IMG/VR virus record: IMGVR_UViG_3300045988_144754 | Origin: a virus | Strand: one strand, 5' to 3' | Length of the DNA: 64,000 bases | Shown: positions 11,101 to 56,914 of the stretch, one piece after another | Layout of the letters: each line of letters opens with the position of its first letter | How positions within the stretch are numbered: the stretch's first letter is position 1 | Translations under genes and position numbers: made by a program | Notes under the pieces: generated by a model | The model's input: the letters and a program-made list of their open reading frames with translations, nothing else | What the model was told of the DNA's origin: nothing | The model's database searches: none

Positions 11101-12894
11101 CTACTCCTGTCCCTGCTTCGTGACGCCTGTCTTCGAGTTGTCGAGGGTGGTAAGCACCTCACGGTCTATCTGCCATTCGAGGTGTGGGTCCCATTCATTG
11201 ATTTCGTCGGTTACCTCCAAGGCGCGGAGCATGAGCTGCTGCAATGGGGCAAACTGTATCTGCTTGACGAGGAAACGCTCGCGGAGGTCAGTGCCGCCCG
11301 ATGAGGTTGCGTCGCCTGGGGTGTTGCCAATGAGCTTGGAGTCGAGACCCATGGCGAAGAAGATGATGCTTGTGATTTCCTGCAGCTCGGTCTTCTCGGC
11401 TTGCGCTTGCGAGTTGGCCTTGCTCTCTATCTCCACAATCTCCCACGCCTTGTGCTCCTTGCCGTCGGTGCCGTTGAACACGGCAGAGATGAGCGCCTGA
11501 CCTGCATTGTCGGGATTGGAGAGCCACGTGTTGATGTCGCTGAACACCTCCTGCTGAAGCTGCGCCATGGTCTTGGTCTTCTTGTCGCCCTGCTGGGTGT
11601 AGAGGTTCTTGAGATATTCCTGGTGAATGTAGATGACGCGACCGATGATGTTGGAGTTGCGCTTACGGGTGAGTCGGTCGTCGACGATGGTGAAGGCATA
11701 CTCGTAGATGCTTCCGGCAAAGATGCTGTGCCAAAGGGCATCGGCATAGTAGGGACCGCCGTAGTCGCGTGGCGACATGATGAAACGGGTGGGGCGGTCC
11801 TTGCGGCTTACCCGCTGCTGACGGGCACGGCGCACGGCGGCCTGGAGGTCTTTCACTGCCGACACGGTGGGAAGATAGGGCACGGCGGCGATGCTCTTGT
11901 CGAGGTCGGCGAACTGAGCGGTGCGGTCTTGCGTGGGGTCGAGCCACTGGTTTGACAAGTAGGCATAGTTGATGCGATAGTTGGTGTCCTGTCGCTCCAG
12001 TCGGGTGGTGAAGATGCTGCGGTGTTTCAGTCCCACTACCTTGGGTGTCCACTGGCTTGTGGGCACGGGTTTGCCTTCGTCGGAGAGTTGTCGCTGGTTG
12101 AGTTGCAGCTCGACGAAGCATTGCGACATGAGCGCCATGTCGCCCGCCATGTTGAGGAAGGTCTGCATCAGGTCGTTGTCCTTCATGAATTTCTTCACCT
12201 CGCGGTTGGTCTGTTCCCACTTGGCGAGGGCGTCCTTCAGGGCTTTCATCTCGTCGCTGTCCTTGGGCTGGCCTTCGGTCTGCTGACTGACGGAATGCAG
12301 AGGGTCGTCGGGGTCGCCGCTGATGCCGTTCTGCTGTTGCTCCTGAAGGTCGGCTTTCTCCTGTGCCTTGAGGTCGGCTATCTGTCCGCGGAGCAGTGTG
12401 CCGGCCGATGCGTAGGGGATGTATTTCTCGGTGATGTTGCCGCCTACGTACTGGGTGTAGTGGTACTTGGGCGAGGGTCCGTGGCCTACGAGTATCTTCT
12501 TGATGAAGTCGACACCGGCTGCGGTGAAGGGCGACATTCGTGAGAGAATCCAGACGAGGTTGGGCAGTCGGTTGCCCACGCCCCATTCCATGTAGCCCAG
12601 TCCGGGTGTTCCCACGCCGTTGGGCTTGGCCTTGTTCTCGCCGCCGCTGGAGGCGAAGATGGTGGAAATCTGTCGTCGTGCTCCCGAAGAGGTGGTCGAG
12701 CTGCCCTGCGCTGTCATGCCGGCTGTCTCGAAGAGCATGGAGCGGACGTAATCGTTCCATGAAAAGACTTGAGCGCCGCTGTTGGGATTGATGAAAGCAG
12801 AGGGCGACACGGCCACATATCCATCGCGCTTCAGTTCCTCACTACGATCTTGGAACTGCTGTAAGTTGGTAACTCTGTTCTTGTTGCGTGACAT
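11101..12894 (-). CDS. hypothetical virion protein (portal-sized; assignment uncertain)
   Basis: 597-aa ORF. Preceded by a TAnnTTTG promoter-like box in the duplicated module at 12925..13010. Confidence 0.4.
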   Translation of the reverse strand: MSRNKNRVTNLQQFQDRSEELKRDGYVAVSPSAFINPNSGAQVFSWNDYVRSMLFETAGMTAQGSSTTSSGARRQISTIFASSGGENKAKPNGVGTPGLGYMEWGVGNRLPNLVWILSRMSPFTAAGVDFIKKILVGHGPSPKYHYTQYVGGNITEKYIPYASAGTLLRGQIADLKAQEKADLQEQQQNGISGDPDDPLHSVSQQTEGQPKDSDEMKALKDALAKWEQTNREVKKFMKDNDLMQTFLNMAGDMALMSQCFVELQLNQRQLSDEGKPVPTSQWTPKVVGLKHRSIFTTRLERQDTNYRINYAYLSNQWLDPTQDRTAQFADLDKSIAAVPYLPTVSAVKDLQAAVRRARQQRVSRKDRPTRFIMSPRDYGGPYYADALWHSIFAGSIYEYAFTIVDDRLTRKRNSNIIGRVIYIHQEYLKNLYTQQGDKKTKTMAQLQQEVFSDINTWLSNPDNAGQALISAVFNGTDGKEHKAWEIVEIESKANSQAQAEKTELQEITSIIFFAMGLDSKLIGNTPGDATSSGGTDLRERFLVKQIQFAPLQQLMLRALEVTDEINEWDPHLEWQIDREVLTTLDNSKTGVTKQGQE

Positions 12895-12924
12895 ATTCTG
12901 TTATCCTTTTTTAGGGTTAATATA

Positions 12925-13010
12925 TGTTGTTGCTTTTTTCGACTACAAAAGTAGGGAGAATTATTTTAATGGTACGGACATGAGTCAGAACAGCGAGAGC
13001 TGCACGGCTC
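12925..13010 (-). repeat. duplicated promoter module carrying a 3' relic of a PF01555-type methyltransferase gene (copy of 14822..14905)
   Basis: About 80% identity to the 3' end plus downstream region of 14877..15647. Encodes ...AVQLSLF* (compare AQLTLF*). Contains TACTTTTG, a TAnnTTTG -7 box. Confidence 0.55.
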
Positions 13011-13246
13011 GGTTGCCTCTTTCGGCGTACCGCGTCTGAGCGAAAAAACTGCGGTCCCGTCGGTTCTCCCTTCCCTTTTCCGCCCACTTCATAGAATTGG
13101 AAAGTTCGAGAGTGTTGGTAGTCTTCGGGAATGGAGCCGTGCGAGCCGCAGTTAATCTAACAATATGTTTCACGTTTTTGCATTATGGCCTATATCAAGA
13201 TGTATTCGGGGTGTCGTGTTGCGTCCGCCTACATATCGTAGTCGTA

Positions 13247-14135: not shown

Positions 14136-14690
14136 TTACGACTCAATCTCGGGAGGGTTGCCACCAGGCTTCTGCTCGCCGCCACCCGTGGTGCCGGAAT
14201 CGCCTGTGCCGGGAGCTGCGGGAGCATCCGTTGCAGCAGCATTGCCCACTCGCTTGAACGAGCCGTGCTGTGCGAAGGCAGCGTTGAACTTCTTGGAGAA
14301 GTCGATGGCAACACCTGCGGTGAGGTCCTTTGTGGTGAGGTCGGCGGCGGTAATCTCTCGGTTCACGTCAACGTCCTCGCCTGCTGCCTTACGTGCTTCG
14401 AGCTTCGCCTTGAGCTGGCTCTGAGTGAGCGAGCCGCTGACGGTAGGACGTACCGTCATGCCCTCGGCAGACACCTGTACCTTGGTGCCCAGTGCCAACA
14501 GAAGCGGCAGCTTTTTCTCCAACTGCGTCATCACGGCCATTACGTCCGCTGCGCCTACTGTAGAGTCCTGCGCCATGTAGTCGCAAAACTCAGGAAATGA
14601 CATCTGCTGCAAGTCAACGATCTGTGCGCTTGCCAGCTTCTCCTGTGTGAGGTGGTTCACACGAACTGCAATTCTTGTTTTAATTGCCAT
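14136..14690 (-). CDS. HU-like DNA-binding protein (Bacteroidetes type)
   Basis: N-terminus MAIKTRIAVRVNHLTQEKLA...FPEFCDYMAQDSTVGAADVMAVMTQLEKKLPLLLALGTKVQV resembles Bacteroidetes HU-family proteins. Low-complexity Gly/Thr-rich tail. Confidence 0.5.
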   Translation of the reverse strand: MAIKTRIAVRVNHLTQEKLASAQIVDLQQMSFPEFCDYMAQDSTVGAADVMAVMTQLEKKLPLLLALGTKVQVSAEGMTVRPTVSGSLTQSQLKAKLEARKAAGEDVDVNREITAADLTTKDLTAGVAIDFSKKFNAAFAQHGSFKRVGNAAATDAPAAPGTGDSGTTGGGEQKPGGNPPEIES

Positions 14691-14762
14691 AGGTTATTTT
14701 TTGTTTGGGCGTTAATACTTTCCTCTCTATTTTTACCCGATTCTACAAAGAGGCTTTTTGCA

Positions 14763-14822
14763 ATGTGCTAACACTTTTCATCAAATGTGCTAACACTTTT
14801 CGTCAAATGTGCTAACACATTG
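14763..14822 (-). promoter_or_regulatory. three tandem 22-bp sites AATGTGctaaCAC (GTG-N4-CAC inverted-repeat cores)
   Basis: Three units at exact 22-bp spacing in the 5' leader of the operon starting at 14690. Same site family as 40356..40437. Confidence 0.5.
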
Positions 14823-14905
14823 CTTTTTTTCGACTACAAATGTAGGGAGAAAATTTTGAGCGGTGTGGACATAAATTCAGAACAGCGTGAGCTGTGCTTG
14901 CTCCA
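14822..14905 (-). promoter_or_regulatory. promoter module downstream of the methyltransferase gene (TACATTTG -7 box)
   Basis: Matches the Bacteroidetes TAnnTTTG consensus. Duplicated at 12925..13010. Confidence 0.45.
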
Positions 14906-15647
14906 ACTTGATGCGCTTGCAAGCCTTGTCGTAATACTCCTTGTTGAGCTCGAAGCCGATGAAGTTGCGCTTCTCTTTTATGCAAGCAATGGCGGTGGTG
15001 CCGCTGCCCATGCAGTTGTCTAATATGGTGTCGCCCTCGTTGGAGTAGGTACGGATGAGGTACTGGATGAGAGCGACAGGTTTTTGGGTGGGGTGGAAGC
15101 TGTTGTGAATATCCCTCTGAAATAAGACAATATCGGTTGGATATTTTTCGTCGGTTATAATATCCTTCACTTTGCCATAATTTCCGTAACATCTGTTGGT
15201 TTGCTCTTTCTCTTGCTTTCCTCTGCTGTGATTGCGTTCATGTGGAAGACATTTGCACATTTGTGGATGATAGGTGGGCTGTCCGTCGTAGAAAACGGAA
15301 ATAATCTCCGTTTGCTTTAGAGGCATCTTCTTTGTGTTCAAAAAGCCAGTTGTACGGCATTTATCCCACGTGATATTATAGCGCCACATCTTTTCATTGC
15401 TCATCATCAGTTTTGCCGTGAACATACCCTGTCCGAACAATATTATAGCCGCATTGGGCTTACTGATACGAAGATATTGCTCCCATAAAGAATCAAGTGG
15501 AATAATACTATCCCATCCTCCTCCTTCGCTCTGCTTATTGAGGACACCATACGGCAAATCACACACAATGCAATCCACGCTTCCGTCGGGAATCCTTTTC
15601 ATTCCTTCGAGGCAGTCTTCATTATATATCTTGTTCAGCTCTATCAT
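14877..15647 (-). CDS. DNA methyltransferase, N6-adenine/N4-cytosine (PF01555-like, beta class)
   Basis: CIVCDLPYG (DPPY-type motif IV) near the N-terminus and NCMGSGTTAIA (motif I) near the C-terminus. Paralog of 42701..43450. Confidence 0.8.
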   Translation of the reverse strand: MIELNKIYNEDCLEGMKRIPDGSVDCIVCDLPYGVLNKQSEGGGWDSIIPLDSLWEQYLRISKPNAAIILFGQGMFTAKLMMSNEKMWRYNITWDKCRTTGFLNTKKMPLKQTEIISVFYDGQPTYHPQMCKCLPHERNHSRGKQEKEQTNRCYGNYGKVKDIITDEKYPTDIVLFQRDIHNSFHPTQKPVALIQYLIRTYSNEGDTILDNCMGSGTTAIACIKEKRNFIGFELNKEYYDKACKRIKLEQAQLTLF

Positions 15648-15654
15648 TGTCTTT

Positions 15655-16689
15655 TTACTTTTTCCTTATCTTTTCCATTTCCTCATTCTCCACCGTCAGG
15701 CGTTCCAGGTGCTCCAGGACGAGGGAATAACTCTGGTTGTTCACCTGGTCCTCCGTCAGACCGGCATACTTCTGCATGGTGGCGGTGGTGGCGGTGTATA
15801 TCTCCAAGGGCGTGGAGGGCTTCTGCGACTTGATGGGCTGCACCTTGAACACATGGCGATAACGATGAGCGAGGGTGTGCATCACGCCCGTCCACCAGAA
15901 GAGTATCACCTGCCATGCCGTTTCGGGGAAATCGCGGAAATAGGACTGGTTCGTCTCCCACTGGTTCAACTCATAGTGGAAGTCGTGTTTCACCATGCCC
16001 GTGTTGCTGTCCACATAGTCGGTCGTGCCGTTGAAGATGGTGGCGAGAAACATCGTCCGGGCAGCGTTCACGTTCTTCATCTGCCGCTGCATCTGCTCGT
16101 CGGTGAAAGTGCCGCGCTGCTGCATCTTCAAGAGGCTGTTGCTCAGTCGGGTGTAGGTCTGCATCATGTCGGAGGCGAAGCGATACTGCGCCCACGAAAA
16201 TCCGTCGAGGTCGTTGGCGGGTCCGCTGAACACCTTCTTGCGTCGCCACCATGCGCGGCGTCGCCGGATGACAGGGTAGGGGAAGCGGGTGAGAAAGGCA
16301 CCGTTCTCGTTGTCTATCCAGTCGAGCAAGCCTGCTCCCTGAGCGATGTACTCTGCCGACTTTCGGGCGTCGGTCTTCGCCTTGGGCGTCAGCCAATAGT
16401 TGATCTGCCACAGATACAGCGGAAAGGTGTCGTTGTCCTCGTCGTCCTGCATACGGCAGAGGTAATACTGCTCGCTGATGTCGAGGCGAGAGTCGGGCAG
16501 CGCCACTATCTCCAAGCCCGACAGGGCGAAGAAGATCGCCACCTTCACGTTGCGCATGTCGAAGGGGTGGTATCTGTCCTGCCGCTCCACCTGCTCGCGT
16601 ATCACGTCGGCTATCAGCTCCAGTTGTTCCGTAGTGCAGAGATTCCAATGTCGGGGAAGATGTAAGTCTATTTTTTTTGGATTGTTCAT
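15655..16689 (-). CDS. hypothetical protein
   Basis: 344-aa ORF. Confidence 0.45.
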   Translation of the reverse strand: MNNPKKIDLHLPRHWNLCTTEQLELIADVIREQVERQDRYHPFDMRNVKVAIFFALSGLEIVALPDSRLDISEQYYLCRMQDDEDNDTFPLYLWQINYWLTPKAKTDARKSAEYIAQGAGLLDWIDNENGAFLTRFPYPVIRRRRAWWRRKKVFSGPANDLDGFSWAQYRFASDMMQTYTRLSNSLLKMQQRGTFTDEQMQRQMKNVNAARTMFLATIFNGTTDYVDSNTGMVKHDFHYELNQWETNQSYFRDFPETAWQVILFWWTGVMHTLAHRYRHVFKVQPIKSQKPSTPLEIYTATTATMQKYAGLTEDQVNNQSYSLVLEHLERLTVENEEMEKIRKK

Positions 16690-16704: not shown

Positions 16705-16895
16705 AGTTTTTATCCCAAAAATGCCAAAATTGGACTATTTTAGTACAGAAAAAATCTAAAATTGTACGATTTTATCCAAAAAACGACAAAATTAGACTAT
16801 TTTCGTACAGAAAAAAATCCAAAATTGGACTATTTTATCCCAAAAACGCCAAAATTGGACTATTTTTAATCCAGAAAAATCCAAAAATGGATGGG
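16705..16895. repeat. tandem array of about six 30-bp units (three ~60-bp units)
   Basis: ccaaaaatgccaaaattggactatttt is repeated with minor variation. Sits between the endolysin stop and the next gene start. Confidence 0.7.
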
Positions 16896-39433: not shown

Positions 39434-39441
39434 TAACTTTG
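39434..39441 (+). promoter_or_regulatory. Bacteroidetes-type -7 box TAACTTTG
   Basis: Exact TAnnTTTG about 27 nt upstream of the ATG at 39468. It lies in the divergent region between the two blocks. Confidence 0.4.
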
Positions 39442-39467: not shown

Positions 39468-40274
39468 ATGAGTCAGATAACACAAGGCACATTGGCACGC
39501 ATCGACAAATGGTTGGCGCAAGGCATCAGTATCGAGACGATGTTCCCGAACCTGGAGCAGCGCTATCGTATGCAGATATGTGCGGAATATTACAAAAGGT
39601 GGGTGCAGAACAAGGACATCGACCCTCGTACCACCTGTCGCAACATTGCCCGACGTGACTACGAGTTGTTCATCAACCAAGCCGCACAGGGCAACAAGGA
39701 GGCTGTGGCGATGATTCAGGCTCTGGGCATCACGGTGGACGATGAGGGTAATGTGAAAAATCGCACCATCACGGAGCTCAACAACGACGTGGCGGTGTGC
39801 AATCATATCATCCGCTTCTTCACCACCGACGAGAGTCCGCGCCACAAGGCCATGTACCTCAATTCGGCAGAATGGTTGATACGCACGGGCAAACAGCAGA
39901 ACAACGACCGTGCCGTGGATAAGGGTATGCAGGCCTTGGCCAACATATACGGCAACTTCATCGAGGAGAAGGATGCTACGGACGAGATGCCGGACATGAG
40001 TCGCATTGCCATCACGCAGGACGTGAGCATCGTAAAGCGCGACCGCATCAACTACACTGAGGAGGAGAAGCTGCGTCTGGCCCGCAAGTATGGTCTTACG
40101 GCAAAGGATATGCGGGATATAGCCGAAGAGGAATCCCTGCAGGCTGTAGGCAAAGACACTGAGCCGGACTACTTCGAGTACATGGAGCAGAAGGACGAGG
40201 AGGATGTGATTAGACACGGGTACATGAAAGAAAGCGAATTGACGGATTCGGAAAAGACGGATGATGCGGAATGA
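39468..40274 (+). CDS. hypothetical protein with acidic C-terminus
   Basis: 268-aa ORF. It is more protein-like than the longer antisense ORF 39285..40412. Confidence 0.45.
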   Translation: MSQITQGTLARIDKWLAQGISIETMFPNLEQRYRMQICAEYYKRWVQNKDIDPRTTCRNIARRDYELFINQAAQGNKEAVAMIQALGITVDDEGNVKNRTITELNNDVAVCNHIIRFFTTDESPRHKAMYLNSAEWLIRTGKQQNNDRAVDKGMQALANIYGNFIEEKDATDEMPDMSRIAITQDVSIVKRDRINYTEEEKLRLARKYGLTAKDMRDIAEEESLQAVGKDTEPDYFEYMEQKDEEDVIRHGYMKESELTDSEKTDDAE

Positions 40275-40355
40275 GTGAAAATGAAACAGAAGTATCTGTT
40301 TGATGCAAACAATGGGCATCGTTTGATATAAACAATGGGCATCGTTTGAAAAGCG

Positions 40356-40437
40356 AATGTGCCGACACATTAAAACGAAGGTGTTAGCACTTTTTGCCAA
40401 AAGTGTTAGCACATTTTACCAAAAGTGTTAGCACATG
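40356..40437 (+). promoter_or_regulatory. four GTG-N4-CAC inverted-repeat sites at about 23-bp spacing
   Basis: aATGTGccgaCACATt, then three GTGttagCAC units, upstream of the PAPS-reductase-family gene. Confidence 0.5.
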
Positions 40438-40540
40438 GGAAAAACGGAGGTTCGGCTGATTTCGCCAAAAGAGTCGAACCTCGGCAAATATATAGTGCAT
40501 AAATGCGCTATAAAAACACTATAAAAAGACTATAAAAAAT

Positions 40541-41392
40541 ATGTTAAACGAACAACTGCAGAAAAAGGTAAAACAGTCGATAAAACTCCTGCAGAGTGTG
40601 CAGAAGCGATACGACGGCGAGATAGAGATAGCATACTCGGGCGGTAAGGACTCCGACGTGCTCCTTCAACTGGCGAAAGAGGCCGGCATCAAGTATCGGG
40701 CCATATACAAGAATACGACCATCGACCCGCCAGGCACGTTGGGGCACGTCAGGGAGATGGGAGTGGAGATACTGAGGGCCAAGACTTCCTTCTTTCATCT
40801 CGTGGCGCAGAAAGGATTTCCATCTCGCTTTACTCGTTTCTGTTGTGAAAAACTGAAGGAATATAAGGTGCTCGACAAAAGTATTATCGGCGTGCGCAAG
40901 GCTGAGAGCCGGAAACGAAACGAAATATACAACGAGCCGACAGAGTGCCGATACTACGGAGCGAAGAAAGAGGAAAATCACGTAGAACAGATTTATCCTA
41001 TTCTGGAATGGACCGATGAGGACGTGCGCGACTTCATTATAGACAGAAAGTTGAAACTCGCACCCATTTATTACAATTCGGGGGGGCAAATCGACGTGTC
41101 GAAACGTCTCGGCTGCATGTGCTGCCCTCTCGCATCAAGGCGCAAGCGCATTATCGAGTTTCAGAAATATCCCAAGATAGCAAAGGCGTATCTCCGTGCG
41201 GGGCAACGATTTATGGAAACGCATCCTGACAGCAAGGCGTGCCAGAGGTACGACAACGTTTACGAATGGTTCACCCGCGACGTGTTTTACAGCTCCAATG
41301 CAGATTGGAACAAGGTAAGCACAGGGCTGTTCGGTAAGCCGGACTTCAAGAAGTTCTTGGAGGATAAGTTCGGTATTGACTTGACATTATAA
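40541..41392 (+). CDS. PAPS reductase-family protein (phosphoadenosine phosphosulfate reductase / DndC-like PP-loop ATPase)
   Basis: PP-loop SGGKDS, a RFCCEKLKE motif, and ILEWTDEDVRDFI, the PLxxWTxxDVWxYI signature of the CysH family. Confidence 0.7.
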   Translation: MLNEQLQKKVKQSIKLLQSVQKRYDGEIEIAYSGGKDSDVLLQLAKEAGIKYRAIYKNTTIDPPGTLGHVREMGVEILRAKTSFFHLVAQKGFPSRFTRFCCEKLKEYKVLDKSIIGVRKAESRKRNEIYNEPTECRYYGAKKEENHVEQIYPILEWTDEDVRDFIIDRKLKLAPIYYNSGGQIDVSKRLGCMCCPLASRRKRIIEFQKYPKIAKAYLRAGQRFMETHPDSKACQRYDNVYEWFTRDVFYSSNADWNKVSTGLFGKPDFKKFLEDKFGIDLTL

Positions 41393-41413
41393 ACAACACA
41401 AAACAATAACGAT

Positions 41414-41743
41414 ATGGCAAAGATTATTTATTTCGGGACAGAAGGCAACGGGCAGGCAGGACACTACCCTATGGGTATCGACAAATACCTTACCCTCGAA
41501 GAATGCAAAATATGGACTGAATGTGACAACGAGACGTGGATCAATAACATCTACAAGAATCCCGGTCGTCACTTGATAAAACATCACGGTGTTGGATATA
41601 CCAACTATGCCGTGCCGTTCTCCGTAGATGATGAAAGGGGTATGTCGCATACTGAAGTATTTTGGGAAGGAATACACTCCGAGGAGGAAATGATAGAGCT
41701 TATTAAAAGCAACACTTTCTTGAAAAAACAATTCAAAATGTAA
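41414..41743 (+). CDS. hypothetical protein
   Basis: 109-aa ORF. Confidence 0.4.
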   Translation: MAKIIYFGTEGNGQAGHYPMGIDKYLTLEECKIWTECDNETWINNIYKNPGRHLIKHHGVGYTNYAVPFSVDDERGMSHTEVFWEGIHSEEEMIELIKSNTFLKKQFKM

Positions 41744-41749
41744 GCGACA

Positions 41750-42031
41750 ATGATAACAATAAAAATCAAGACATGGAAGGACTGGAAGAAGGACTTCATC
41801 GATTGGGTAAAGGAGCCAGGGCGCAAGACGTGCAAGGAGTATGTGGACTATATGGAGGCTTTACAAAAACAGACTCTCTACCAAATAATAGAGGACACTT
41901 GTGATAAATACAACAATATGCGTGAGGATCAAATCAAAGACATCACAGAAGCAGTAGAAAAATGCGTGGCTGCTTGTGCTGAAGAAACACGCAAGTTAAT
42001 CGATGAATGTCAGCCCGCAAAATTCTTCTAA
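41750..42031 (+). CDS. hypothetical protein
   Basis: 93-aa ORF. Confidence 0.35.
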   Translation: MITIKIKTWKDWKKDFIDWVKEPGRKTCKEYVDYMEALQKQTLYQIIEDTCDKYNNMREDQIKDITEAVEKCVAACAEETRKLIDECQPAKFF

Positions 42032-42072
42032 GACTGGAACTTTCATTATAAGCAACAAAAACTCTACACAAC

Positions 42073-42681
42073 ATGAATAACAACATAAAAAGAAAGGACT
42101 GGGTAGGCGGCTCGGCTGCTGTATTCAAGACGTTGGGCGCAAGCAACCATACGAATGCGGATAGACAGCGGGAGGATTACTATGCCACTGAGCCAAAGGC
42201 GACGGAATGGCTGTGTAAGCTGGAGAGGTTTGAGGGCAGGATTCTTGAGCCTTCGTGTGGCGAGGGTCACATGAGTAGAGTATTGGAGGCAGCAGGGTAT
42301 GAGGTGGTGAGCCGCGATCTTGTGGATAGAGGGTACGGTGAGGTTGCCGACTTTCTCTCTATTGACAATATGGAATGGGACGGCAACATCGTTACCAATC
42401 CTCCATACAAATATGCGCAGCAGTTTGTGGAGAAGGCTCTGAGCATCATCCCCGAAGGAAAGAAGGTGGCGATGTTCCTGAAGCTGACTTTCCTCGAAGG
42501 CAAGGGTCGACGCGCTCTCTTCCGTTCTACCCCACCCATTCGTGTTTGGGTAAGCTCGTCAAGACTGAAATGCGCTATGAATGGCGACTTCGACAAATAC
42601 GGCAGCAGCGCTGCGGCTTACGCCTGGTTCGTGTGGGAGAAAGGATATAAAGGCGAGACAACTGTGAAATGGTTTAACTGA
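42073..42681 (+). CDS. small SAM-dependent methyltransferase with NPPY motif (putative N6-adenine DNA MTase)
   Basis: LEPSCGEGHM (motif I-like) followed by NPPYKYAQQF (motif IV). Confidence 0.55.
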   Translation: MNNNIKRKDWVGGSAAVFKTLGASNHTNADRQREDYYATEPKATEWLCKLERFEGRILEPSCGEGHMSRVLEAAGYEVVSRDLVDRGYGEVADFLSIDNMEWDGNIVTNPPYKYAQQFVEKALSIIPEGKKVAMFLKLTFLEGKGRRALFRSTPPIRVWVSSSRLKCAMNGDFDKYGSSAAAYAWFVWEKGYKGETTVKWFN

Positions 42682-42700
42682 TAGAAAAAAACAATAGAGC

Positions 42701-43450
42701 ATGATAGAACTGAATAAGATATATAATGAAGACTGCCTGGAAGGGATGAAAAGGATTCCGGACGGGAGTGTGGATTGCATCGTGTGCGATTTGCCATATG
42801 GCACTACCGCTTGTGCTTGGGATAGCGTTCTTCCGTTTGATAAGTTGTGGGAGCAATACAGAAGAATTACAAAACGAAACGCTCCTATTGTTCTGTTCGG
42901 AAATGAACCTTTTAGCACATTTCTAAGAGTCTCAAATATTAAGTATTGGAAATATGACTGGATTTGGGACAAGAAAATGAAAGGGGGTTTCTTGAACGCA
43001 AAGAAAAGACCCCTCAAGCAGTATGAAAATATATCTGTTTTCAGTTATGGTGATTGCATCTACAATCCTCAAATGACTAAAGGTGTATTTAGAAACAAAA
43101 AGTCGTATAATAATAGAGAGGGAAATGGGGATGGCGTGTATCGTAAGTTTGGAAACATTGATGTAAAAAATGACATTTACTATCCTTCAAACATTTTGGA
43201 GTATAGCAATGCCGCACAGAAAGGCAAGATCCATCCCACACAAAAGCCCGTAGATCTCATTCAGTACCTCATCCGTACCTACTCCAATGAGGGCGACACC
43301 ATATTAGACAACTGCATGGGTAGCGGCACAACTGCCATTGCAGCCATCCGCGAGAAGCGTAACTTCATCGGCTTCGAGCTCAATAAGGAGTATTACGACA
43401 AGGCTTGCAAGCGCATTAAATTGGAGATGGCGCAGCCGACCCTCTTCTAA
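42701..43450 (+). CDS. DNA methyltransferase, N6-adenine/N4-cytosine (PF01555-like)
   Basis: The first 34 aa and last 60 aa are nearly identical to the 14877..15647 protein. Motifs CDLPYG and MGSGTT. Confidence 0.8.
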   Translation: MIELNKIYNEDCLEGMKRIPDGSVDCIVCDLPYGTTACAWDSVLPFDKLWEQYRRITKRNAPIVLFGNEPFSTFLRVSNIKYWKYDWIWDKKMKGGFLNAKKRPLKQYENISVFSYGDCIYNPQMTKGVFRNKKSYNNREGNGDGVYRKFGNIDVKNDIYYPSNILEYSNAAQKGKIHPTQKPVDLIQYLIRTYSNEGDTILDNCMGSGTTAIAAIREKRNFIGFELNKEYYDKACKRIKLEMAQPTLF

Positions 43451-47218: not shown

Positions 47219-47878
47219 TTAATCTTCCAATCTATTCCGCATCATCGACAGCCAGCTCACCACCGATTGATAGTCAGTAGAGCGAAAACGATAACGCTTG
47301 TAGTTGGCTGTTATCTCGCCGACCCAGCGGATGCGCTGCGACTTCACGAAGCCGATACCTCGGACAACATGACCTGCAGAGCCCCTGCCTTTCTGCTCGC
47401 GTCCTTTTGCGTCGCGCTGTATCTCCTGATAGATAGTGCCGGTACGACGGGCACCGCGTGAATGAGAGGAAATAATCGGCTCGTTCTGAGGGGCAAAATC
47501 TTTCATCATAGTTAGCATTTTATAAGCCTTTTCCCCTACTTGTCTGCGATATTCAGGCGATTTTTTTAATTTGTATTTATAAGCCAATCTCGCCAAAGCG
47601 AGTTCGCCTATACCCAAATATAACATTAACTTAGAATTTGGCATGGTGGCGTAATTGTCGCACAGCCATTTCACTTGACTGCCCGTAATTCTGTCGCCTC
47701 GCGCCCTCATCATTGCCATTGTAGCACGATCTTTTTCCCATCCATGCGAAACAGCAAGATGATGTAATCCGGCACGGCTAATATCATACTGTGAACAGAG
47801 CATGACATTCGCAGTAGTCGGATAAACCAAAGAGAGAGAATGAATCTCGTCTTCGGAAAGAGAGCTATAGTGTCGCAT
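47219..47878 (-). CDS. hypothetical protein
   Basis: 219-aa ORF. Confidence 0.4.
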   Translation of the reverse strand: MRHYSSLSEDEIHSLSLVYPTTANVMLCSQYDISRAGLHHLAVSHGWEKDRATMAMMRARGDRITGSQVKWLCDNYATMPNSKLMLYLGIGELALARLAYKYKLKKSPEYRRQVGEKAYKMLTMMKDFAPQNEPIISSHSRGARRTGTIYQEIQRDAKGREQKGRGSAGHVVRGIGFVKSQRIRWVGEITANYKRYRFRSTDYQSVVSWLSMMRNRLED

Positions 47879-51538: not shown

Positions 51539-51667
51539 TCTATAAATCCTTTTATATTTAATTAGAAACCAAAGATACAACCTCCGACATATTTCTGAGC
51601 CATATAAACGGTCACAGGGATGCAACCATCATAGGCTTCTTTCGGGATAATTCTCAATTTCATGTCT

Positions 51668-51846
51668 TATTCAAATTTATATACTATATGCGGTGTGGTA
51701 TTGCCCAGTCCGTCGCGAGGGTCGGCAATACCTCTCCCGACCATTGTCGTCACAGCATTGGCTATCAGCTTGCGCGGTCGGTACTTTACGAGGCCCTTGC
51801 CGTCCTTGCCGGAACGTACCCATCCGATGTAATACTTGTCAATCAT
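51668..51846 (-). CDS. small repeat-borne ORF (MIDKYYIGWVRSGKDGKGLVKYRPRK...)
   Basis: 58-aa paralog of 49661..49783 inside repeat R1-prime. Confidence 0.35.
51678..51843. repeat. direct repeat R1-prime
   Basis: See 49607..49779. Confidence 0.7.
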
Positions 51847-52040
51847 ATTCTATCAATACAATGGTGTGCTGTCCGTGCTCGTCGTAGAGTCCTGCCCATC
51901 CGTCGTAGCGTGCGGACAGTGCGGTGGAGTACCCCCGGACGTGGGCAGAGATAGGATGTGCGTTGCACGAAAGGGATTTGTTTAATCATACGTTATCAAT
52001 ACCATGTTGTCTTTGCCAACCGAGGTGAGAGTGTTGGTTG

Positions 52041-52051
52041 TCCCCCCCCCC
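52041..52051. repeat. poly-C homopolymer tract (11 nt)
   Basis: tgtcccccccccccgttt, seen directly. Confidence 0.9.
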
Positions 52052-52137
52052 GTTTATCTCCATTCGCTGACAGAAGCGTCCGTTGGAGGGATGCTTGCGG
52101 TCGGACGGATTGTCGGGGTCACGGCCTCGGAAGGCTG

Positions 52138-52635
52138 CTATGCGAAAGTGTAGCATAGGAGGTTGTCTTTTGTTACTGTTGTTATCGAATTGCTCCACGC
52201 CCACGGACTTGGGCGGTGATACTTGTCGCTGTATTTGCACCCTCCCCGGTCGCCATGTTCACGACGGAAGGCTTTGGCTTCCTCGGTGCGGTAGTGGACG
52301 AGGACGGAACGATTAATCATACTCTATCAATATTTTCGGTTTATCCACGTCGTGACCTTTACCTCCCCCGGCTATGCACAAGGCTATGCCGCGCGGCGAC
52401 ACGATGATGCCGTTCTGCGAGGGGCTGTAGGAGCCGAGGATGATGGGGCGAGGGTTGTTATTCATATATTACAATTACGCCAGTGGCTTTGAAATTTGCT
52501 CCTTGGGTTGAAACGTCAAGAACATCGTATGCACCCTTCTTGAAATAATTGGCTTTGATAGTGCGTGATGTGCCATCGGATTCGGTGTTGAAAGGGAATG
52601 TCATAATTCTACTGCTACAAAGAACACGTCGCTGC
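52138..52635 (-). pseudogene. frameshifted fragments of a C5-cytosine methyltransferase C-terminal half (TRD, motifs IX and X)
   Basis: Three overlapping short ORFs in three frames. They carry SRTIKANYFKKGAYDVL (compare RTLTARYHKDGSEILI), SPRGIALCIAGGGKG (compare M.HhaI GISITLSAYGGG), and a degenerate TEEAKAFR...WSNSITTV (motifs IX and X). Confidence 0.45.
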
Positions 52636-52779
52636 AATCGGTGCGCGACATGATAGTTATTGCTATACCGTGAAATGCTCCGTTGAAGCGTTCTGCGCTG
52701 AACATCGAGGCAGGGCAGGTGAGCAAACTACCCCCCAATCATATCAGCTATGATACGGATTACACGGTCGGGTGGATTA

Positions 52780-56485: not shown

Positions 56486-56914
56486 CTATTGTTTTATCCC
56501 ACGTAAAACTTTTCTTTTTCCTGCAAGGCCCTCCTCAAGTTGTCTGTTAAAATTTATCCAGTCCTGCAACTGCTCATCATATTCAATATCACCAAGTGTA
56601 TATATCAAACCGTAGGTATCGCATACTGGATGAGATAACGGTAAGGGTGCTTTTGGCTCACTATAACATATAATGGTAGTTCCATCGTTGTATTGTGCAG
56701 TTTTTTGCTCTCCGTATTTCAGCAAGAAGATCAAGCCCTTCTGCATCTCGTATTTCAGTTCAGACATAGAGAACCTTCGTCCTAAATATCCGTTCACAAC
56801 ATAACCTCCTGCATAATACTGGTAGGAAGCTCCATCGAGTTGATGGCGATAGAGGGTAAGTTTAGCTCGTGATAAGAGAGATTTAAGTACTCTGCGAGTT
56901 GCGAATTTTCCCAT
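56486..56914 (-). CDS. hypothetical protein
   Basis: 142-aa ORF. Confidence 0.4.
   Translation of the reverse strand: MGKFATRRVLKSLLSRAKLTLYRHQLDGASYQYYAGGYVVNGYLGRRFSMSELKYEMQKGLIFLLKYGEQKTAQYNDGTTIICYSEPKAPLPLSHPVCDTYGLIYTLGDIEYDEQLQDWINFNRQLEEGLAGKRKVLRGIKQ

Follow-up and report, generated by a model that had tools for sequence, protein, structure and literature searches.

Two arrays of short dyad-symmetric sites in an uncultured gut phage are best classified as phage operator arrays of a new form, in which modular triplets of phased sites lie in transcribed leaders and can exchange their cores. Judging from the sequence, and at a little under an even chance, we take them to be operator sites on double-stranded DNA for one or more putative lineage-specific dimeric factors that would gate two operons. 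To our knowledge, gene regulation in large uncultured gut Bacteroidota phages is essentially unknown.

The window, the whole 64-kb stretch of DNA analysed here, is part of a 102.5-kb contig from a human-gut metagenome (ENA ERZ963742 k127_4406). Its source is a tailed, uncultured gut Bacteroidota phage of about 100 kb, encoding a tape-measure protein, a head protease, an endolysin, a weak terminase match and at least four methyltransferases. A search of the phage database gave no close relative among deposited phage genomes; relatives of 50-106 kb number in the hundreds in IMG/VR and ENA. Neither an integrase nor a repressor module was seen in the phage, and for that reason we have no evidence of lysogeny. 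The phage's promoters are of the Bacteroidota type, with the -7 box consensus TAnnTTTG (PMC7366714). This box is enriched in the window (55 observed versus 39 expected). Intergenic DNA makes up 13% of the window and contains 18 of the boxes, 14 of them sense-oriented and no more than 160 nt from a start codon.

Anatomy of the two arrays

The 64-kb window contains exactly six copies of the 10-mer GTGTTAGCAC, three on the plus strand at 40381, 40403 and 40425 (array 2) and three on the minus strand at 14765, 14787 and 14809 (array 1). All copies within the two triplets are spaced by exactly 22 bp and face the downstream genes. A multiplicity of six is unexceptional alone for a 10-mer, as block shuffles also reach six; two triplets at exact 22-bp phase cannot have a chance origin. 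The units follow the pattern AAA(A/T)GTG-N4-CAC(A/T)TTT, an 18-bp dyad with about 4 bp to the next unit. The gene-distal unit is the best palindrome in array 1 and array 2 alike, AATGTGnnnnCACATT (extended, AATGTG-N4-CACATT).

A sequence-only reading had described array 2 as four operator sites about 23 bp apart. Its motifs are present where it placed them, AATGTGCCGACACATT at 40356-40371 and then GTGTTAGCAC at 40381-40390, 40403-40412 and 40425-40434 (+), with T-tract/A-tract spacers between the units. The spacing is exactly 22 bp rather than 23, with core starts at 40359, 40381, 40403 and 40425. The first unit contains GTGCCGACAC at 40359, in 22-bp phase with the triplet, and is a perfect outer palindrome (AATGTG-CCGA-CACATT) of the TCGG/CCGA core type, which is the array 1 core type of contig 134987. 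Four sites in phase are real, but they are a composite of core types and not equivalent sites. The array also runs on past the end first given to it, with two chimeric units (GGTTCG/GTCGAACC), GAGGTTCGGCTG and GAGTCGAACCTC, at 40447..40482 (+). These form a mutual 11-bp inverted repeat and, from their letters, seem to combine parts of the GGTTCGAACC and GAGTCGGCTG core types; their place is occupied by three intact GGTTCGAAC units in relatives L212 and L015. Array 2 of the window is thus one CCGA unit, three TTAG units and two chimeric units. The TTAG units of the window are six perfect copies, and the non-TTAG units are single or chimeric.

On the minus strand at 40441-40492, 2 nt separate TATATTTG from the 40447-40482 hairpin, and a run of five T comes next, an arrangement that could specify an antisense RNA about 45 nt long. 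L010 does not conserve this hairpin.

Just upstream of array 2 the same reading had noted a tandem 20-bp repeat, aaacaatgggcatcgtttga x2, which we find at 40307-40326 and 40330-40349 with a period of 23. A third member, AAACAGAAGTATCTGTTT at 40284-40301, has diverged from these two. Seen as quasi-palindromes in 23-bp phase, these are AAACAGAAGTATCTGTTT (40284) and two copies of AAACAATGGGCATCGTTT (40307 and 40330), together spanning 40284..40347 (+). They constitute a second repeat family whose cores are likewise variable, with variants in L038, L152, L164 and L341. At L341 13800-13960, the 23-bp repeat family (AAACAATAGGTATAGTTT x3-4, AACTAATGGGCATCAGTT x2), oriented opposite to that of the window, lies upstream of a TACATTTG promoter driving a 76-aa/terminase operon.

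Array 2 sits in a 266-nt leader between the stop codon of a gene for a conserved helical 268-aa protein of unassigned function (39468..40274, +), which lies 5' of the repeat region, and the PAPS-reductase-family gene (40541-41392, +), the first gene after the array. Three copies of an 11-bp A-tract repeat, CTATAAAAAnA (40508..40538, +), stand directly 5' of the PAPS-reductase start codon. Downstream on the same strand are 109-aa and 93-aa unknowns (within 40541..43450), a DNA methyltransferase gene (42073-42681) and an N6/N4 methyltransferase gene (42701-43450), followed by a terminase-like gene. The array is 5' of this operon, as had been proposed, but in its leader and not upstream of a promoter. 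No TAnnTTTG box was found on the plus strand between the 268-aa gene and array 2, where there is only ATCGTTTG and then the same 'aaaagcgaat' lead-in as at array 1, and no canonical -7 box between array 2 and the PAPS-reductase gene. Past the 268-aa gene the plus strand has no terminator-like site, and upstream of array 2 it has a single canonical promoter, TAACTTTG (39434..39441, +), 26 nt before the 268-aa gene. Because the array has no box of its own, no terminator precedes it and the sole good promoter is at 39434, it most likely lies inside a read-through transcript.

The PAPS-reductase gene has a different regulatory solution in another lineage (L016-L029), with its own TAATTTTG promoter about 60-150 nt upstream of the start. 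This promoter is preceded by an inverted repeat, GGGACAA...TTGTCCC, around a variable insert.

Array 1 (14765..14818, -) consists of GTGTTAGCAC x3 in the leader of the gene for an HU-HIG family DNA-binding protein (14136..14690, -), the first gene after the array and the first of a leftward operon continuing into virion genes. A Bacteroidota -7 box, TACATTTG (14837..14844, -), lies 18 nt upstream of the first core. A TAnnTTTG box precedes array 1 in every lineage examined, even where the flanks differ (TATATTTG, TATCTTTG, TACCTTTG). The stop codon of an N6/N4 methyltransferase gene (14877..15647, -), a 62% paralogue of that at 42701-43450, is 33 nt upstream of the box. A paralogous promoter cassette without an array (ttctcccTACTTTTGtagtcgaaaaaagcaac, 12946..12953, -) is found upstream of gene 11101-12894, with a leader of 51 nt. 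At 146 nt, the HU leader exceeds that of every other sense-oriented box lying no more than 160 nt from a start codon, and its excess length is essentially that of the 66-bp array. Array 1 is therefore an insertion in a transcribed leader, at about +10 to +80. The duplication, between 12895-13246 and 14691-14876, takes in the promoter cassette and the 3' end of the preceding N6/N4 methyltransferase gene ('gctgttctga...atgtcc'), one copy having the array (14837) and the other lacking it (12946).

Arrays 1 and 2 are mutually reverse-complementary and so share their orientation toward the downstream genes, which begin at 14690 (-) for HU-HIG and 40541 (+) for the PAPS reductase. Their assignment to one family, with the same core and orientation, was correct. 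Across the two arrays of the window the cores are identical at 60 of 60 positions and the spacers differ at 2-4 of 12, pointing to a shared sequence-specific reader.

The window holds other repeats. Between the endolysin gene and gene 15655-16689, a 31/62-bp tandem repeat of about 5.6 copies, 'aaaatagtCCAATTTTGGcgttttt', occupies 16708-16891 (- orientation); one copy is an exact TAATTTTG -7 box, and the repeat may be a row of promoter-like or operator-like elements. The 1.15-kb 'intergenic' stretch at 51626-52779, as also L341 13400-15300, has several short tandem ORF pieces and poly-G runs. Each piece ends in ...ILIEYD-type peptides with 'attgatagaatatgat' junctions, and the pieces resemble repeated fragments of cytosine-methyltransferase C-termini.

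Exchange of cores among related phages

Among relatives, short dyad-symmetric cores are swapped inside a conserved frame of A/T-tract spacers (tttcatcaaaa, atttgatgaaaa). The core types of close relatives are TTAG, TCGG/CCGA, GGTTCGAACC, GGGGATAGCCCC, GGGCTAGCCC and GTTTCGCCCGAAAC, in flanks that are 94-97% identical. At array 1 the core is GTGTTAGCAC in the window, L092, 104445 and 111964; GTGTCGGCAC in contigs 134987, 156455 and 173642; GGTTCGAAC in 171405 and 113283; GGGGATAGCCCC in 140285 and 136316; and GTCGGCTG-like in 179784. A similar contrast is given by L098 (GGGGATAGCCCC, GGGG) and L100 (TTAG), where flanks about 97% identical enclose entirely different cores.

Contig 134987 is about 94% identical to the window and colinear with it from 9.5 to 62.8 kb. 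The array 1 spacers of the two are positional orthologues (gacA/gatA versus gacG/gatG), and all three array 1 cores of 134987 carry the same two changes, TTAG to TCGG. As the cores changed in parallel and the spacers were retained, the event is a core-specific, cassette-like switch and not homogenisation of whole units. Independent mutation and homogenisation are both excluded, since the same changes are found in three cores and homogenisation would erase the spacer identities.

Copy number in the arrays varies from 1 to 6 among relatives and spacer order is shuffled. Array 2 is composite, with up to four sub-arrays of three units: CCGA x1, TTAG x2 and GGTTCGAAC x3 in L212; GGTTTCGCCCGAAAC x3, GTGCCGACAC x3 and GGGCTAGCCC x3 in L152; and four triplets with 'ggaaaacg' between them in L302. 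At L302 8820-9260 and L152 560-1260 (reverse), the three or four sub-arrays have exactly three units each, of the types GTTTCGCCCGAAAC, GTGTTAGCAC or GTGCCGACAC, GGGCTAGCCC and AGAGTTAGCTCT, with 'ggaaaacg' separators. The TCGG/CCGA and GGGG types are found facing either way with respect to transcription. Where units have degenerated, the dyad pairing is broken with no bias toward G-U, and GTGTTAGCCC (GCCC) units, common in relatives, have no dyad symmetry.

The positions of the arrays are conserved across lineages whose proteins are 58-99% identical. Deletion has removed array 2 and most of the PAPS-reductase gene from 155282, and array 2 is missing between the equivalent genes in L014/L044 and most of the family; the arrays are accordingly dispensable. 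Loss of the HU domain in 104445/108496, and of the entire HU gene in 111964/102495, has left the promoter and the TTAG array in place.

TTAG pairs or arrays occur in related genomes at these two loci only, rather than as part of a larger dispersed repeat. Other matches to the pattern are unrelated 22-bp arrays or satellite, consistent with chance. Most of what the metagenome scan returned came from an unrelated satellite in WLWD01, and the search of bacterial genomes for a prophage copy returned only unrelated chance arrays. GTGTTAGCAC at 22-bp spacing is also seen in unrelated elements (L004/L005 2431-2495, L117 2244-2330). One such element is small and Rep-encoding, with the repeats upstream of a ribbon-helix-helix gene, and another is a 2.5-kb Sulfitobacter contig with four copies. 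These are most likely chance occurrences among many 22-bp iteron-like arrays.

Putative readers and rival explanations

In the mechanism we propose, each phased dyad site (22 bp, two helical turns) would be read by a dimer of a DNA-binding protein specific to the phage lineage, the sites being placed in the stretch, transcribed or probably so, between the promoter and the first gene of each of two operons that face outward. With three or four neighbouring dimers bound, RNA polymerase would be blocked just after its start at array 1 (about +10 to +80) and, at array 2, while reading through from the upstream gene. Dimeric readers of double-stranded DNA are suggested by the phased dyads, the selection on cores only, the cores found either way round, the grouping in threes and the lineage-specific replacement of cassettes. 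Control of transcription is favoured over replication or packaging because the arrays are promoter-proximal or intercistronic and a paralogous promoter lacks one. By analogy with mycobacteriophage stoperators (PMC9283540, PMC6550527) and promoter-proximal operators, a roadblock or promoter-proximal block is the favoured mode of action; we infer repression rather than activation, as we do binding by a protein, its dimeric state and the gene encoding it.

TTAG-type sites would tie both operons to one factor in this genome. Co-regulation of two distant operons by a single factor had been suggested, and the identical TTAG cores make shared control of the HU/virion and DNA-modification blocks plausible here; the suggestion does not extend to all relatives: in 104445 the TTAG x3 of array 1 has no TTAG counterpart in array 2. 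Array 2 evidently also responds to other inputs or retains remnants of former specificities.

Pfam, PHROGs, NCBIfam and PDB sequence searches found no DNA-binding reader among the neighbouring genes. By Pfam, PHROGs or NCBIfam no HTH repressor gene adjoins the arrays, nor was a gene for a C-protein (small XRE-type HTH) found. Across window positions 9.5-46 kb no gene is swapped between the window (TTAG) and 134987 (TCGG), the differences between the two lying in the mosaic early region. The missing swapped gene, the failure to find a DNA-binding protein, the non-dyad GTGTTAGCCC units, the mismatch between the array 1 and array 2 cores of 104445, the multiple specificities of array 2 in relatives and the lack of any sign of lysogeny all count against the operator reading.

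Several candidate readers were rejected. In HU-HIG, N-terminal residues 8-14 vary with core type, but L094/L095 share the peptide and have different cores, and the HU domain or gene is lost where promoter and TTAG array persist; linkage is the simpler explanation of the correlation. A coiled-coil/Zn-ribbon protein encoded upstream of array 1 in other lineages has a near-identical C-terminus across different cores, and a 265-aa protein of 134987 is present in TTAG genomes too. The 93-aa protein co-occurs with TTAG units but is acidic and is missing from L262. The neighbouring 268-aa protein has no family or PDB match, and its AlphaFold model (pLDDT 52) is too poor for a structure search.

Two proteins remain as candidate readers, and as leads only. 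One, of 219 aa (47219..47878, -), is a candidate DNA-binding regulator whose N-terminal half is predicted to form two tandem, HTH-like three-helix bundles (pLDDT 83-91); its C-terminal 80 residues are nearly invariant and very basic. Its presence is polymorphic among genomes about 95% identical, and the syntenic site lacks it in 134987, 155282 and L262, the last of which keeps TTAG x3. Foldseek gave no significant match for it (best E 0.75), and an AP2-like C-terminal domain was unsupported by the predicted model. The other, of 142 aa (56486-56914), is absent from 134987.

An unlikely alternative is that the arrays are iterons, bound by an initiator at one or two origins or serving as an origin-pairing ('handcuffing') control locus. 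Their 22-bp period, direct-repeat register, copy number of 1-6 and lineage-specific sequence are typical of iterons, the GTGTTAGCCC units resemble one-sided, monomer-type sites, and similar 22-bp arrays occur in unrelated small replicons. Array 2 is moreover followed by an A/T-rich stretch with the 11-bp repeat x3. This 11-mer adjoins array 2 only and the 22-bp register is present at both arrays; A-rich leaders are usual before Bacteroidota start codons. An origin is difficult to reconcile with the lack of an adjacent initiator gene or of any replication gene within several kb (the clamp, 1226-aa protein and exonuclease genes are beyond the right end of the window), with the loss of array 2 from 155282, L014/L044 and most of the family, and with several specificities per array, which are hard to square with one initiator. 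GC skew in the window tracks gene direction only and is uninformative, and the array-free paralogous promoter suggests a regulatory add-on.

The sites could also be upstream activating sites, through which a late-gene activator would switch on a non-canonical promoter between array and start codon; we consider this no more and no less improbable than iterons. Both downstream blocks look late (virion genes in one, DNA modification and the terminase-like gene in the other), no canonical -7 box is present from array 2 to the PAPS-reductase gene, and the 93-aa protein shows faint, sub-threshold similarity to sigma-70/RinA models. Those matches (E about 0.02) are, however, far below curated cut-offs and the protein is acidic. 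Furthermore, L262 keeps TTAG x3 without the 93-aa gene, and a good canonical promoter lies upstream of array 1.

It is quite improbable that the cores are target or sensing sites of methyltransferases, with methylation of clustered sites feeding back on the modification genes, even though methyltransferase genes neighbour both arrays, the two N6/N4 enzymes are paralogous and the at least four phage methyltransferases can be set beside up to four core types in array 2 of relatives. Several cores do contain classical palindromic sites (CTAG, TCGA, TTCGAA, GCTAGC), but the TTAG, TCGG and ATAG centres are non-palindromic, and between the window and 134987 the methyltransferase adjoining array 1 keeps about 94% identity despite the core switch. 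We place equally little weight on the arrays being a functionless minisatellite, a scar of recombination, or a packaging (pac) site used by a small terminase subunit. Variable copy number, chimeric units and shuffled spacer order would fit a scar, and the array 2 operon does end with a weak terminase-large-subunit match and some contigs end near the arrays. Yet the cores are kept identical as spacers drift and switch in parallel, and array position is conserved across the lineages; two inverted pac sites and multi-specific arrays would make no sense for packaging, and the 268-aa protein is not demonstrable as a small terminase.

Least probable of all is an RNA leader element, in which hairpins would govern transcript stability, termination or translation, or recruit an RNA-binding protein: both arrays are probably sense-transcribed, the predicted leader folds greatly exceed shuffled sequences in stability (z -5.2 and -6.8) and the TTAG and TCGG centres are self-complementary via G-U pairs, but low z-scores are automatic for palindromic repeats, CCGA x3 (L152) and flipped GGGG units stand in the orientation that loses G-U pairing, the GCCC units are non-symmetric, Rfam had no match at gathering thresholds in the whole window and no terminator-like U-tract is found on the sense strand. 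A reader of double-stranded DNA fits better than an RNA element because both orientations occur and the degenerate units have no G-U bias.

Comparison with known systems and implications

Lambdoid OL/OR are tripartite operators whose site sequence differs between relatives with similar flanks (heteroimmunity). Like them, the arrays have three adjacent pseudo-palindromic sites about two helical turns apart, in two inverted sets with outward transcription, and a site sequence that varies between close relatives in similar flanks. The sites are dyads on one helix face (22 bp centre-to-centre), except for the GTGTTAGCCC units of relatives. Unlike OL/OR, which lie over -35/-10, they do not overlap the promoter: array 1 is 18 nt after its -7 box and array 2 is without a canonical box. 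The sets are also 25.6 kb apart with structural genes between, have no adjacent repressor gene or signs of lysogeny, and include several specificities in array 2.

The stoperators of Cluster A mycobacteriophages (L5, Bxb1) are repressor sites in transcribed regions that halt elongation, and stoperator sequence and repressor specificity diversify together between related phages (PMC9283540, PMC6550527). They are single asymmetric 13-bp sites, orientation-dependent, monomer-read and present at 20-30 per genome (PMC9283540, PMC6550527). The sites of our arrays are similarly downstream of promoters in transcribed regions, but they are clustered in dyad-symmetric triplets at two loci only, with at least two core types occurring either way round.

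The arrays share with plasmid and lambda iterons the 22-bp register, direct repetition, variable copies, type-specific sequence and, at array 2, an A/T-rich repeat. Iterons at plasmid and lambda origins are direct repeats with type-specific sequence and variable copy number. The arrays differ in having no initiator neighbour, in being dispensable and multi-specific, and in lying in a leader directly after a promoter. The C-boxes of restriction-modification systems and the phage Mu mom operon are examples of regulated, potentially harmful DNA-modification genes. As with these, clustered palindromic sites would here gate such genes; unlike the pair of C-boxes, they are triplets at 22 bp, and a second array stands at a non-modification operon.

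For one region to carry up to four specificities, several factors would be required. The region before the modification operon is possibly, though doubtfully, a modular 'operator barcode', in which site triplets for several different lineage-specific DNA-binding factors share one A/T-tract frame and pass as cassettes between co-circulating gut phages.

The 10-bp core can be used directly as bait for the regulator and is a clean, testable entry point, and the natural swapped-core variants, whose flanks are near-identical, already supply controls for specificity. Should the cores mark regulator-operator pairs that diversify, they would provide orthogonal operator/regulator parts for Bacteroides engineering and would indicate an immunity-like or cross-talk system among human gut phages that share hosts. 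If the barcode reading is true, late or modification genes could be gated by the phage's own factor and by factors of related co-infecting phages, which would amount to a network of immunity or cross-regulation among abundant Bacteroidota phages that appear not to be lysogenic.
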